Origin: a virus | Lineage: Duplodnaviria > Heunggongvirae > Uroviricota > Caudoviricetes | IMG/VR virus record: IMGVR_UViG_3300014204_000107 | Span: 107,468-171,467 of that record | DNA: 64,000 nt | Reading direction: 5' to 3' (one strand) | In this document: piece after piece, positions 7,826 to 33,177 of the stretch | Numbering within the stretch: position 1 is the first letter of the stretch | Layout of the letters: the number at the start of each line of letters is the position of its first letter | Translations under genes and position numbers: made by a program | The notes under the pieces: model-generated | The model's database searches: none | What the model saw: the letters and a program-made list of their open reading frames with translations, nothing else | What the model was told of the DNA's origin: nothing

Positions 7826-7875
7826 CATCAAATTTTTTATTTGATATATCGATATTTTTTTCTTAATTTCATATT

Positions 7876-8265
7876 ATGAATAAAATAGACACGGAACATA
7901 TTAAATTGGGAAGGTGTGCGGATACATTCACTTATGTATTATGCCCTGATTCTGCATGTGATCTTTTCTTCTCATCCGCAAATCCAATACCGTGCAAGCG
8001 TAATCAATTTGCTGTTGTGCAATGTCCCCATTTAGATGATGTGCTATTTATGTTATATTGTAGCAACTGTGGTGAAGAAATGGTATATAAAAATGGAAGA
8101 AGTGATTGGCGGCGCATAGATCATAAATGTGGTGGTTCAGAGCTTGGTAAACAATGCGCTGGAAAATACAGGTTGGTTAGGGTTAATGATCCTCCTAATA
8201 CAACTGCCAATCCATTTGAAAATATATTAGAAATAATGCAAGACCCAAATAAAAAAATATTATGA
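7876..8265 (+). CDS. Cys-rich hypothetical protein
   Basis: multiple CxxC-like pairs. Confidence 0.6.
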   Translation: MNKIDTEHIKLGRCADTFTYVLCPDSACDLFFSSANPIPCKRNQFAVVQCPHLDDVLFMLYCSNCGEEMVYKNGRSDWRRIDHKCGGSELGKQCAGKYRLVRVNDPPNTTANPFENILEIMQDPNKKIL

Positions 8266-29891: not shown

Positions 29892-30652
29892 AAAAAGTAT
29901 ATGTTCAAATAAAAAATGGATTTCCAATCAATGCTGATATACAGTCTGCGGTTGATGGATTTGAATATTTAGGATTTGATGCAATTGGATTCAGAATAGA
30001 AGAAATATTGGCAGGCAAATTTGATAATATAGCAAAATTAAATCCATTTGTTGGTTCAATTGACTGCATGACTGCGTTATTTAAACGTATTAATGTGTAT
30101 CCAATTCCTATTGATTTTCCAAAAGAAATACTTGATAGCGGATTAATTAGCAGAAAGATACAAATTTTAAATATTGATGACGCAATTGCCAATTTTAAAA
30201 GAACTTTAATACCAGTATTCATAAAACCAGTTCAAACAAAGTTGTTTGATGGCATTTTAGTAGAGGATATAAAATATTTAAACTACTTTAAAGGATTTGA
30301 GGGCACTGATGTAATAGTATCTAATAAACTTGATATTTTAAGTGAATACCGAGTATATATTCATAATGGTAAAATGGTATATTCAGCTAATTATGCTGGT
30401 GATTTTGAGTTAATACCAAACTATGATTATGTGCGGCAAGTTATTGCATCATATGCCAGTGCTCCTATTGCATACACAGTAGATGTTGCTGTTGTTAAAG
30501 ATAAAGATTACATATATAACGATATAATTGAAGTGAATGACTTTTGGGCAATTGGAAATTACGGATTAAAATGCTGGGATTATGCACAAATGTTATTAGA
30601 CCGATATTTTGAAATAATTAATTATACTTTTGATAGTGGAAATCATCAATAA
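29888..30652 (+). CDS. ATP-grasp protein (DUF4343/R2K-like)
   Basis: VFIKP..KLFDG, SEYRVYI, AYTVDVAV, IIEVNDFWAIG.YG. Confidence 0.8.
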   Translation: MKKVYVQIKNGFPINADIQSAVDGFEYLGFDAIGFRIEEILAGKFDNIAKLNPFVGSIDCMTALFKRINVYPIPIDFPKEILDSGLISRKIQILNIDDAIANFKRTLIPVFIKPVQTKLFDGILVEDIKYLNYFKGFEGTDVIVSNKLDILSEYRVYIHNGKMVYSANYAGDFELIPNYDYVRQVIASYASAPIAYTVDVAVVKDKDYIYNDIIEVNDFWAIGNYGLKCWDYAQMLLDRYFEIINYTFDSGNHQ

Positions 30653-30692
30653 TATTTTTGGTTATACTATTTATATTAAAAGGAGATAGTAT

Positions 30693-31583
30693 ATGATAAA
30701 ATGTGAAATTTGTAATCGTGAATATGAAACTCGAAAATCTTTTTCCTATCATTTGCGTAATCATAACATAACAATTAAACAATACAATGAGTTATATCAA
30801 TTGGATGTACAATCTTATTGCAAAAAATGTGGTAAGTTATTAACAAAGAAAAATAGAAAGACCGATTATTGTACAACTCACAGGGATCGCACAGGTGCTA
30901 ATAATCCATTTTTTGGTAAGACACACACAAAGGAAACAATAGAATCTAATAAAATAAAAGCAAGTAAAAAAATTAAAACTCGATGGAAAGACCCGGTATA
31001 TCGGAAAAAGGTAATTGATGGAATATCAAAACCCAGAAGTATTGCGGCTAAGATTAATATATCAAATGGTGTCAAGCAATCCTATAAAAATGATCCTCAA
31101 TTAAAACAAAAAAGAAGTCAAGTAATGCTTGATAGAATCAAAAATGGATTTGATCCATTACATGGCAGAAGTTTGCAAGGAGAGGGTTGGGGAGAAACTG
31201 GCATATTTAATGATATATATTATGTTTCAAAACTCGAGAAGAAACGATTAATTTTTTTATGTAATAATAACATTGCAGTTAAAGGATATCTAAGATCTGA
31301 ATTCAATGATTCAATTTGTTATCGTGATACAATAAATAATATAGATAGAACGTATTTCCCGGATTTTATATTACCAGATAATAAATGTGTTGAAGAAATT
31401 AAATATCGAAATAGTTGCTTTGATATTCAAGTTTTATCAAAATATCAAGCAGCATTTTTATTTTTTAAAAGAATAAATTATAGATATTATATAGTCACTG
31501 AACGCGATTTTGAATCTACTCCAGACGAGATTTATAATAATACATTAAATAAGCAAATTAGATCACAATTAAATCAATATTAA
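30693..31583 (+). CDS. Zn-finger/NUMOD3/PD-(D/E)xK endonuclease
   Basis: CEIC..H..H; NPFFGKTHTKET; YFPDF...EEIK. Confidence 0.7.
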   Translation: MIKCEICNREYETRKSFSYHLRNHNITIKQYNELYQLDVQSYCKKCGKLLTKKNRKTDYCTTHRDRTGANNPFFGKTHTKETIESNKIKASKKIKTRWKDPVYRKKVIDGISKPRSIAAKINISNGVKQSYKNDPQLKQKRSQVMLDRIKNGFDPLHGRSLQGEGWGETGIFNDIYYVSKLEKKRLIFLCNNNIAVKGYLRSEFNDSICYRDTINNIDRTYFPDFILPDNKCVEEIKYRNSCFDIQVLSKYQAAFLFFKRINYRYYIVTERDFESTPDEIYNNTLNKQIRSQLNQY

Positions 31584-31595
31584 ACACGCGAGAGC

Positions 31596-32033
31596 ATGTA
31601 CAAAAATAATATGAATAAAACATTTAACGAAGGAGATAAAATTTATTATGAATTTACTCCGCATACAGTAACAAGAATTGAAAATGGTGAAGTAACCCAA
31701 GTAACAGATGATTGCATTCACCGTTCGGGGTTATCCTTGACAGATGGTTGTTTTCACATTACAGATGATATAATTAAAATTAGCCATGCATTTATTGGAT
31801 TTGAAGAAGTGATTAGAAATGCAGCAAAAGAACCATTTAGTTTAAATTGGCCGCAAATTCAAAATAAACTTGTTGAATATTGGGAAGCTGCGTGTAATGC
31901 TGCAAATGGAGTTGATTCATATTTTGTTGTCTACTATGTTGAACGCGCAGACCATTTCACAGCTGAATTAGTTGCAAGAATTAATGAAATAAGAAATATG
32001 ACTATCGAAGAAATATATATTATGAGGGGGTAA
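31596..32033 (+). CDS. hypothetical protein
   Basis: 145-aa ORF. Confidence 0.65.
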   Translation: MYKNNMNKTFNEGDKIYYEFTPHTVTRIENGEVTQVTDDCIHRSGLSLTDGCFHITDDIIKISHAFIGFEEVIRNAAKEPFSLNWPQIQNKLVEYWEAACNAANGVDSYFVVYYVERADHFTAELVARINEIRNMTIEEIYIMRG

Positions 32034-32049
32034 AATAAGAATAAAAAAT

Positions 32050-32337
32050 AAACTTGTTCGACTATATGCGTTTGTATTTATACAGACGAGGAAACTCCGA
32101 ACACCACCGCTAGACATGGGAGACATATTAAAAAGGGTTAACAATAAGAGCACTAAACCAGTAACCCCGAAAGACACAGGTACAGAAATGTATGCTAGCT
32201 GTTAGAGTGCTTATGTCGTTAACACCATGGAGGGTGCAAACCATACAGGATTAGAGGGAAAGCGGCTCTATAATATCCGGGTTGGTGCATTAGTTAGATA
32301 TATAGATAGAACAGAATTCGGGTTACGGGGCAAGTTT
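32050..32337 (+). ncRNA. rnpB: RNase P RNA
   Basis: P1 aaacttgttc/gggcaagttt; CR-I GAGGAAACUCCGAA (32088) pairs with CR-V ACAGAAUUCGGGUUAC (32311) as P4; ACAGAAA and GGUGCAAAC in the expected order; terminator follows. Confidence 0.85.
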
Positions 32338-32344
32338 TAAAAAG

Positions 32345-32370
32345 ATAGCGGTTTAGGCCGCTATTTTTTT
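32345..32370 (+). terminator. intrinsic terminator after rnpB
   Basis: atagcggt-ttag-gccgctat plus T run. Confidence 0.85.
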
Positions 32371-32418
32371 CTTTGTTCACTATTTATTTATGATGAACTA
32401 TATTTTGGAGAAACCACA

Positions 32419-33177
32419 GTGGAAAATATTCAAGAAAAATCGATTTTCGTAGACGACAATCTATGTTCTGACTTTTGGGATACTGGTAATAAGCTCAAGA
32501 AAGAAATTCGAGCACATCTACTTAAAATCGCTTTAGACTTTTATAGTGGAGTTAAGTTCACCCATGGCAAAAAGGTCATTAAAGATATTTATTTTACTGG
32601 ATCATTGGCCGGTTATAATTATCATGAACAGTCAGATGTCGACATTCATATTGTATTAGATTATTCAATGTTAGATGATAACGAAGAATTGCTCGATAAT
32701 TATTTTAAATTTGCTAAATCCGAATGGAATGGTAAACACGATATTACTATCAAAGGCAGAGTGGTTGAGATAGGAATAGATAATGTTATTAATAACAATC
32801 ACCATGACGGCGTTTATTCATTAATACATGATAAGTGGGTTAAAGAACCCACTAAACAAGCAGAGGATGCAGTGGATGGTGAAGAAATAGATAGGTATGC
32901 TAAGAAAATAATGGGTAAAATCGATACTTTAATGCAAGATTATGCTTTAAGTGATGCGGAAGATGCCGCCTCTGTTGCGTATGATAAAGCAAAAGAACTG
33001 AAACACAAGATAAAAGAAATGCGGCAAAAGGCCCTGGATTCGAAGAAAGAGTTATATTCAGTAGGGAATTTGGTGTTTAAATCGCTAAGAAATAGTGGAT
33101 ATATGGAAAAATTATCAGATTTTATGCATGAAATGTATGATAAAATGTATATAATTGAACATAATATGGAGAACTAA
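32419..33177 (+). CDS. Pol-beta-like nucleotidyltransferase domain protein
   Basis: YFTGSLAGYNY...SDVDIH; GNLVFK.LR. Confidence 0.75.
   Translation: MENIQEKSIFVDDNLCSDFWDTGNKLKKEIRAHLLKIALDFYSGVKFTHGKKVIKDIYFTGSLAGYNYHEQSDVDIHIVLDYSMLDDNEELLDNYFKFAKSEWNGKHDITIKGRVVEIGIDNVINNNHHDGVYSLIHDKWVKEPTKQAEDAVDGEEIDRYAKKIMGKIDTLMQDYALSDAEDAASVAYDKAKELKHKIKEMRQKALDSKKELYSVGNLVFKSLRNSGYMEKLSDFMHEMYDKMYIIEHNMEN

Follow-up and report, generated by a model that had tools for sequence, protein, structure and literature searches.

The trimming of new tRNAs is the task of RNase P RNA, which is, to our knowledge, regarded as a universal cellular ribozyme. A preliminary description of the DNA analysed here, a 64-kb stretch of a virus record referred to below as the window, claimed a phage-encoded RNase P RNA of about 290 nt. 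This claim raises the question of whether a phage carries an RNase P RNA of its own and, if so, whether that RNA is a working enzyme. The record came from a landfill metagenome, and contigs with an identical gene, hence with no natural variation in it, were found in a groundwater study. Among the sequencing runs listed for this DNA there was no RNA run. Its phage origin is borne out by the record itself, which is 299,351 bp long (GC 32%), has direct terminal repeats and is estimated to be complete. One RNase P-like locus is present in the genome, together with 38 tRNA or tmRNA genes (about 37 tRNAs plus the tmRNA) that lie in two regions.

A permissive cmscan of positions 31950–32450 gave a match to RF00010 (bacterial class A RNase P RNA) at 32050–32341 on the plus strand, with 56.1 bits and an E value of 1.4e-16. 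The match covered model positions 1–367, i.e. the full length, and at 292 nt it agrees with the size claimed. RF00010 was the best and the sole significant Rfam family match, and the best model within the clan was class A, not class B. The covariance-model check proposed in the preliminary description thus supported the claim, as the class A match is significant, with the qualification that its score falls below the curated gathering score of 100 bits for RF00010. At the Rfam gathering threshold no RNase P was detected in the 64-kb window, where the same run gave 23 tRNA matches, one tRNA-Sec and one tmRNA. The shortfall arises because the specificity domain is unaligned and P18 is missing; the alignment spans P1, P2, P3, CR-I, P5, P15 to P17, the joining strand before P2, and CR-V. 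A genome-wide RF00010 search of the 299-kb phage gave no match, as its first-look filter drops reduced RNAs, and genome-wide negatives obtained by that route are therefore unreliable for the phage RNase P family. The ORFs that overlap 32050–32341 are all spurious and shorter than 70 aa. These results support the assignment of 32050–32341 as a phage-borne, shortened class A RNase P RNA that scores under the Rfam cut-off. Its parts are listed in Table 1.

Table 1. Parts of the RNase P RNA gene and its terminator (positions in the window)
Feature	Position	Strand	Remarks
RNase P RNA gene, 292 nt, reduced type A	32050-32341	+	RF00010 full-length match
P1 5' strand AAACUUGUUC	32050-32059	+	pairs with 32328-32337, 10 pairs
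P2 5' strand CUAUAU	32062-32067	+	pairs with 32300-32305
P3 hairpin, 9 pairs, UU loop	32069-32088	+	
CR-I (GAGGAAACUCCGAAC), J3/4 and P4 5' strand, AGGAAAC[U]CCGAA	32089-32101	+	
P5 5' strand CACC	32102-32105	+	pairs with GGUG 32233-32236
P6 pseudoknot 5' strand CCGCU	32107-32111	+	pairs with AGCGG 32261-32265, P17 loop
P7, CAUGG 32115-32119 with CCAUG 32225-32229	32115-32229	+	encloses the 105-nt insert
Specificity-domain remnant, divergent, 105 nt	32120-32224	+	unaligned by the Rfam model
ACAGAAA motif resembling J11/12 (CR-II)	32183-32189	+	
J5/15 CAA	32237-32239	+	GCAA invariant in nine-member alignment
P15 ACCA/UGGU; P16-P17 hairpin 32248-32278; L15 3' strand GGGU 32279-32282	32240-32286	+	
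J18/2-equivalent joining strand, CR-IV-like, GCAUUAGUUAGAU	32287-32299	+	no P18 hairpin
P2 3' strand AUAUAG	32300-32305	+	
J2/4, CR-V (ACAGAAUUCGGGUUAC) and P4 3' strand, AUAGAACAGAA-UUCGGGUU	32306-32324	+	
P1 3' strand GGGCAAGUUU	32328-32337	+	pairs with 32050-32059
Intrinsic terminator: 14-pair stem, 4-nt loop, T-run	32339-32370	+	

The catalytic helices P1 to P5 occur in canonical order together with CR-I, CR-IV and CR-V. As had been noticed from the letters alone, P1 closes the molecule (10 pairs), and CR-I, the CR-IV-like strand and CR-V follow one another in the expected sequence. The P6 pseudoknot is a type A feature, and P15.1 and P5.1 are type B elements; the type A P6, formed between J5/7 and the P17 loop, is present in 32050–32341. 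Also present are P15, P16 and P17 with their internal loop L15, whose GGU is the binding site of the tRNA 3'-CCA. The motifs kept in the catalytic domain are the AAA run and bulged U in P4, GCAA in J5/15, GGU in L15, and ACAGAA in CR-V. The P18 hairpin, whose GNRA loop docks on P8, is absent: the model's P18 positions were deleted in the cmscan alignment, and the 13 nt between P15 and P2 (32287–32299) leave no P18, the joining strand equivalent to J18/2 keeping UAG-AGAU. The specificity domain (P8–P12, P13/P14 and CR-II/CR-III) is the part that reads the tRNA elbow, and no alignable P8–P14, CR-II or CR-III was found in 32050–32341. Compared with the bacterial type A RNAs (E. coli M1, Thermotoga maritima P RNA, RF00010), the phage RNA has the same helix order and catalytic core. 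It differs from them in that i) it is virus-encoded, ii) it has 292 nt, against a model of 367 positions, and no P18, iii) its specificity domain consists of P7 and a divergent 105-nt insert, iv) one P4 pair is C-G, not G-C, and v) no rnpA is present in the same genome.

The preliminary description had read P4 as carrying paired substitutions that preserve the helix, and we found the same. In P4, 5'-AAAC[U]CCGAA-3' (32093–32101) pairs with 5'-UUCGGGUU-3' (32317–32324), leaving U32096 bulged. The pair on the 5' side of the bulged U is C32095-G32322, where the canonical pair, described as universally conserved, is G-C, and the two distal pairs are A-U. The helix is thus kept, whereas the identity of the conserved base is not. 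In the numbering of T. maritima, G51 is the nucleotide that is swapped, beside the universal U52. In the bacterial enzyme, the catalytic metals are bound by phosphate oxygens at the equivalents of A50/G51 and by O4 of U52 (PMC4919922). Since the metals contact the backbone phosphates of this nucleotide and not its base, and the helix backbone is preserved, replacing G-C by C-G at this position would, by analogy, be expected to be catalytically neutral.

Fifteen further phage RNase P RNAs were collected, 8 with a swapped and 7 with a canonical P4. The swapped members were gathered by exact-pattern scans for both swapped P4 strands, and since this first set was collected by the swap itself, canonical-P4 short forms were scanned for as well. 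Five of the swapped members are on viral contigs (L010, L041, L043, L044 and L052; L049 is the same contig as L010) and three on metagenome contigs (L046, L047 and L048). Their RF00010 scores are 143.3 bits (L052), 134.2 (L043), 113.9 (L044), 76.2 (L048), 50.1 (L010), 43.8 (L047) and 43.0 (L041). L046 gave no RF00010 match at E ≤ 0.001, and its P1, P2, P3, P4 and P5 are clear by inspection. The canonical-P4 members, on seven viral contigs, score 52–171 bits. Six of the collected RNAs (L043, L044, L052, L102, L100 and L105) are above the gathering score, at 103–171 bits. The RNA at 32050–32341 shares the traits of this family, namely a viral contig, a type A catalytic domain, a reduced or replaced specificity domain and the usual lack of P18. 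Blastn, which is too insensitive for RNA of this kind for a negative to bear on its presence in cultured phages, gave no match of the phage RNA, L043 or L048 to 50,697 GenBank phage records. Three other metagenome loci picked up by the scans (L045, L050 and L051) are chance matches in GC-rich coding DNA, have neither an Rfam match nor core motifs, and served as negative controls. Together with the scores of up to 143 bits reached by relatives of the same layout, this speaks against a chance match at 32050–32341. At another locus, L042, the 3' motif alone matched, and there was no Rfam match.

In an RNAalifold analysis of nine members, P4 was predicted with its bulge, as were P1, P5 and the base of P3, and 21 of the 30 predicted pairs had double compensatory changes. 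The distal P4 pairs covary (AA/UU, GG/CC, CA/UG and GA/UC), as do those of P5 (CACC/GGUG, CUCC/GGAG, CAUC/GAUG, CACA/UGUG and CACU/AGUG). The strand pair of each RNA was also compared with strands from other members in 20000 permutations. None of these reached the cognate total for P1, P2 or P5, whereas 3 did so for P3, 3 for P7, 16 for the P6 pseudoknot and 29 for P15. Selection, which had been proposed from the paired changes in P4, therefore extends to cognate pairing in P1, P2, P3, P5, P6, P7 and P15. Thirty positions do not vary among the 15 other phage RNAs, and the RNA at 32050–32341 has the shared base at 29 of them. The lone deviation is A32300, the innermost base of the P2 3' strand, and it is compensated by its partner U32067 (C-G to U-A).

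These patterns bear on whether the locus is simply a decaying, functionless relic of a captured host rnpB, or mis-assembled host DNA. The low Rfam score (56 vs 100 bits), the missing P18 and the unrecognisable canonical specificity elements are what a relic might show. However, all of the catalytic-core motifs are intact, and the sole deviation from the invariant positions is compensated, which argues for a maintained RNA and not a relic. Moreover, the gene is followed by a terminator and has phage genes on either side, the genome around it is complete and has terminal repeats, a second study, of a different habitat, yielded the identical sequence, and the reduced design recurs in the 15 other contigs. 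We consider a relic or an assembly error highly improbable. Judged from covariation and conserved motifs, the catalytic half is intact and under structural selection across the phage family.

The swapped P4 is found outside phages as well. One genome per species, from about 186,000 prokaryotic species, was scanned for the swapped-P4 pattern at full-size spacing, yielding 46 loci against ~2 expected by chance. Eighteen of these loci were tested, and 15 proved to be RNase P RNAs that exceed the gathering score; L054, L082 and L095 are chance matches in coding DNA, with no Rfam match and no core motifs. The swapped C-G pair is thus seen in about 43 cellular RNase P RNAs (loci among L053–L098; examples are L060:5599-5933, L083:1323-1678, L063:1449-1782 and L096:1092-1460). 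They belong to Solirubrobacterales and WOR-3 in class A, to two Spiroplasma in class B and, among archaea, to many Desulfurococcales, Acidilobaceae, Pyrodictiaceae and others. Since the swap occurs in confirmed cellular RNase P RNAs, it is no bar to class A membership. By its distribution among these sequences, the swap is a change that arose repeatedly, that an essential enzyme can accommodate and that is no phage novelty.

The cellular swapped RNase P RNAs share with the phage RNA an identical P4 (GGAAACUCCG ... CGGGUU), and those of class A form their own group in the tree, apart from the phage RNAs. The RNAs of WOR-3 and Solirubrobacterales lack P18, like the phage RNA, but unlike it the cellular swapped RNAs are full-size (326–369 nt) sole copies scoring 145–225 bits. 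Nine of the 16 collected phage RNAs have the swap, a fraction biased by the design of the search, and it appears to be far more frequent in phage than in cellular RNase P RNAs. Resolution is poor in a maximum-likelihood tree of 20 RNAs, where swapped and canonical phage RNAs are interleaved; the most parsimonious history of the swap has 5 changes, and a single clade is not rejected (AU p = 0.09). In this tree the RNA at 32050–32341 falls among the small swapped forms (support 82/96) and is closest to L048, with 63% identity over 202 columns.

The locations of the family members point to tRNA biology. Thirteen of the 15 others are located in tRNA arrays, and at least 8 members adjoin the 5' or 3' end of a tRNA, within about 10 nt. 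In L041, for example, the element is between tRNA-Ile (ending at 7846) and tRNA-Val (starting at 8093). No tRNA was found in the 11.7 kb of L010 that were searched, and the contigs of L046 and L047 are too short to tell. As the pattern scans contained no tRNA condition, the linkage to arrays speaks independently for a part played in tRNA biology. Many of the ribozymes are wedged between tRNA genes with gaps of 0–10 nt (L041:7772-8165; L101:2179-2539; L104:425-776; L105:3489-3954; L052:2502-2948). With so short a gap to the downstream tRNA, an RNase P cut at the 5' end of that tRNA would make the 3' end of the ribozyme. The order tRNA-Asp, RNase P RNA, tRNA-Ser, tRNA-Ser, tRNA-Trp is common to L043:2696-4642 and L052:2177-2948. 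The viral contig of L103 carries, besides a large tRNA array and an RNase P RNA whose P4 is canonical, a sub-threshold tmRNA match on the minus strand (L103:11843-12227; 34 bits, E 5e-10), a set that mirrors that of the 299-kb phage.

The gene at 32050–32341 departs from this family pattern, its nearest tRNA gene being 5.6 kb away. It is set apart by being a stand-alone gene, in no array and bounded by its own terminator, and by its idiosyncratic 105-nt specificity insert. The terminator claimed earlier was recovered as a 14-pair stem followed by a T-run. No sigma-70-like site, as a dedicated promoter, was found upstream of 32050. The pattern TTTG...TAnnTTTG, a Bacteroidota-type consensus, is weakly enriched in the window (13 copies vs 7.2 expected), and the copy nearest to the ribozyme is at 30629–30660, just before the ORF at 30693–31583. 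Transcription may start at this copy and run to the gene's own terminator, and processing of the longer transcript may then make the 5' end of the RNA.

The flanking genes encode an R2K ATP-grasp protein, a NUMOD3/TnsA-like endonuclease, an acidic 145-aa ORF product, a Pol-beta-type nucleotidyltransferase and an S9 peptidase, and none of these genes is conserved beside the RNA in other family members. The endonuclease ORF (30693–31583, plus strand), two genes upstream of the ribozyme, has matches to NUMOD3 and to a TnsA-like endonuclease N-terminus and is homing-endonuclease-like. The nucleotidyltransferase (32419–33177, plus strand; 252 aa) starts 50 nt past the terminator and has weak Pfam matches to Polbeta, NTP_transf_2 and DUF7799. 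Two neighbours were considered as partner proteins and rejected: the upstream 145-aa ORF product (pI 4.9) has no Pfam match and no homolog beside other members, and the nucleotidyltransferase is not conserved at the other family loci.

Short contigs (295 and 439 nt) from the landfill and groundwater samples match just the conserved core, at 32071–32105 and 32245–32283, with 4–6 differences, and one of them was at about four times the depth of the phage. Their loose ends, GGUUGCAAC and AAUAGAUAAAUGAUGAUAUAAAAC, resemble J5/15 and J18/2. By these resemblances they look like further RNase P-like RNAs of other phages in the same samples.

The family varies widely in its specificity domain: in the nine swapped-P4 members, the interval between the P5 strands ranges from 41 to 127 nt. 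L043, L044 and L052 keep CR-II-like and CR-III-like motifs (CACAG(A/U)GAC and GUGAAA), and L043 also retains a GAAA-capped P18. The 105-nt insert at 32120–32224 alone folds no better than shuffled sequence (z -1.34). Such variation beside a fixed catalytic domain could mean that the RNA is a specialised ribozyme and not a general tRNA 5' maturase, with a specificity domain that redirects it to particular phage RNAs that the host enzyme handles poorly, such as tmRNA, tRNA look-alikes, Y-RNA-like genes, class II tRNA bodies with Lys anticodons, or mRNA sites. The tmRNA and unusual tRNA-like genes near the locus would fit this idea, as would the gene's own terminator and its location apart from arrays. 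However, most relatives are embedded among ordinary tRNA genes, and neither a guide that would pair with a substrate nor any other signal of specificity was found. Furthermore, the insert has no relatives among the collected RNAs and therefore offers no covariation evidence for any particular fold. For these reasons we regard a specialised substrate range as unlikely.

The absence of rnpA from the window, noted earlier, was confirmed and extends to the whole 299,351-bp genome, where no RnpA-family protein (PF00825) was found at E values up to 1; the same search found the protein in 10 bacteria used as a control. Without an RnpA of the phage, the RNA must compete with the host RNase P RNA for the protein, and it might thus be a decoy that binds host RnpA or pre-tRNAs unproductively and throttles the maturation of host tRNAs as the phage takes over. 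In bacterial holoenzymes, the parts of the RNA in contact with the protein belong to the catalytic domain, which is retained here (PMC4919922). A decoy, however, needs no active-site or substrate elements, yet the bulged U, the J5/15 A, the L15 GGU, ACAGAA and P6 are conserved in 16 phage RNAs, and the load of about 37 tRNA genes calls for additional RNase P activity, whereas a decoy would lower it. We think it very unlikely that the RNA acts in this way.

In our opinion, the RNA at 32050–32341 is probably a working, reduced type A ribozyme that processes precursor RNAs of the phage with the help of host RnpA, an assignment drawn from its sequence. As the complete phage genome has no RnpA, a hybrid with the host protein would be the likeliest mechanism. 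The complete catalytic domain (P1–P5, P6, P15–P17, CR-I, CR-IV and CR-V) would assemble with host RnpA, the hybrid enzyme would cut the 5' leaders of about 37 tRNAs, the tmRNA and several tRNA-like RNAs, and the remodelled specificity domain would alter recognition of the elbow. The window has 27 tRNA genes, all without an encoded CCA, and therefore the GGU of L15 would pair only after CCA addition, or may serve structure.

More tentatively, the family as a whole may represent a private RNase P ribozyme of large phages that takes over host RnpA and is tuned to phage tRNA arrays. This proposal, which we advance only as a possibility and as a joint statement with all of its parts, holds that i) the arrays are dense, CCA-less and partly non-canonical, and tuning to them would be achieved by a cut-down or swapped specificity domain, ii) in most members RNase P, by cutting at the next tRNA, would itself free the ribozyme from the array, and iii) in the present phage the gene would be an independent, terminator-bounded unit with a new 105-nt module that reads the substrate.

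Two known systems offer parallels for a ribozyme reduced in this manner. The catalytic domain of the E. coli RNA alone is active with or without protein, and a P6-like pairing matters for its activity whereas P18 does not (PMC5839562). The engineered E. coli 'CP RPR' of the same study cleaves without a specificity domain, and the phage family keeps the features that this construct needs and drops those that it can dispense with. 'CP RPR' is a product of laboratory deletions and works with reduced efficiency, whereas the phage RNAs occur naturally as conserved genes. The copy described here still has a sizeable, non-canonical specificity insert. The type T RNAs of Thermoproteaceae (Pyrobaculum; PMC3579882; Lai et al. 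2010) are natural, have lost most of the specificity domain and still act as tRNA 5' maturases. They have archaeal architecture and protein subunits and are cellular and essential, whereas the phage RNA is an accessory second copy in a virus.

No report of a virus-encoded RNase P RNA was found in a full-text literature search or in RNase P reviews (2016, 2024 and 2026), and no published description of the phage RNase P RNA family was found. The genes of such RNAs fall under the Rfam cut-off and hence are missed by standard annotation. If the private-ribozyme proposal is true, the family would include the first RNase P known to be encoded by a virus and would provide a natural series of minimal bacterial-type ribozymes. 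If the RNAs are active, the family would form a natural deletion series from near-canonical members (143 and 171 bits) down to about 205 nt, in which P18, P13/14 and most of the specificity domain would be dispensable and P4, P6, L15, J5/15, CR-IV and CR-V indispensable. The recurrent C-G swap at the metal-binding phosphate would then be a natural test of whether P4 acts via backbone geometry. Active RNAs would also mean that large phages supply part of the tRNA-maturation machinery, beyond the tRNAs themselves, which would bear on their big tRNA arrays and on escape from host shut-off or tRNA-directed defences.
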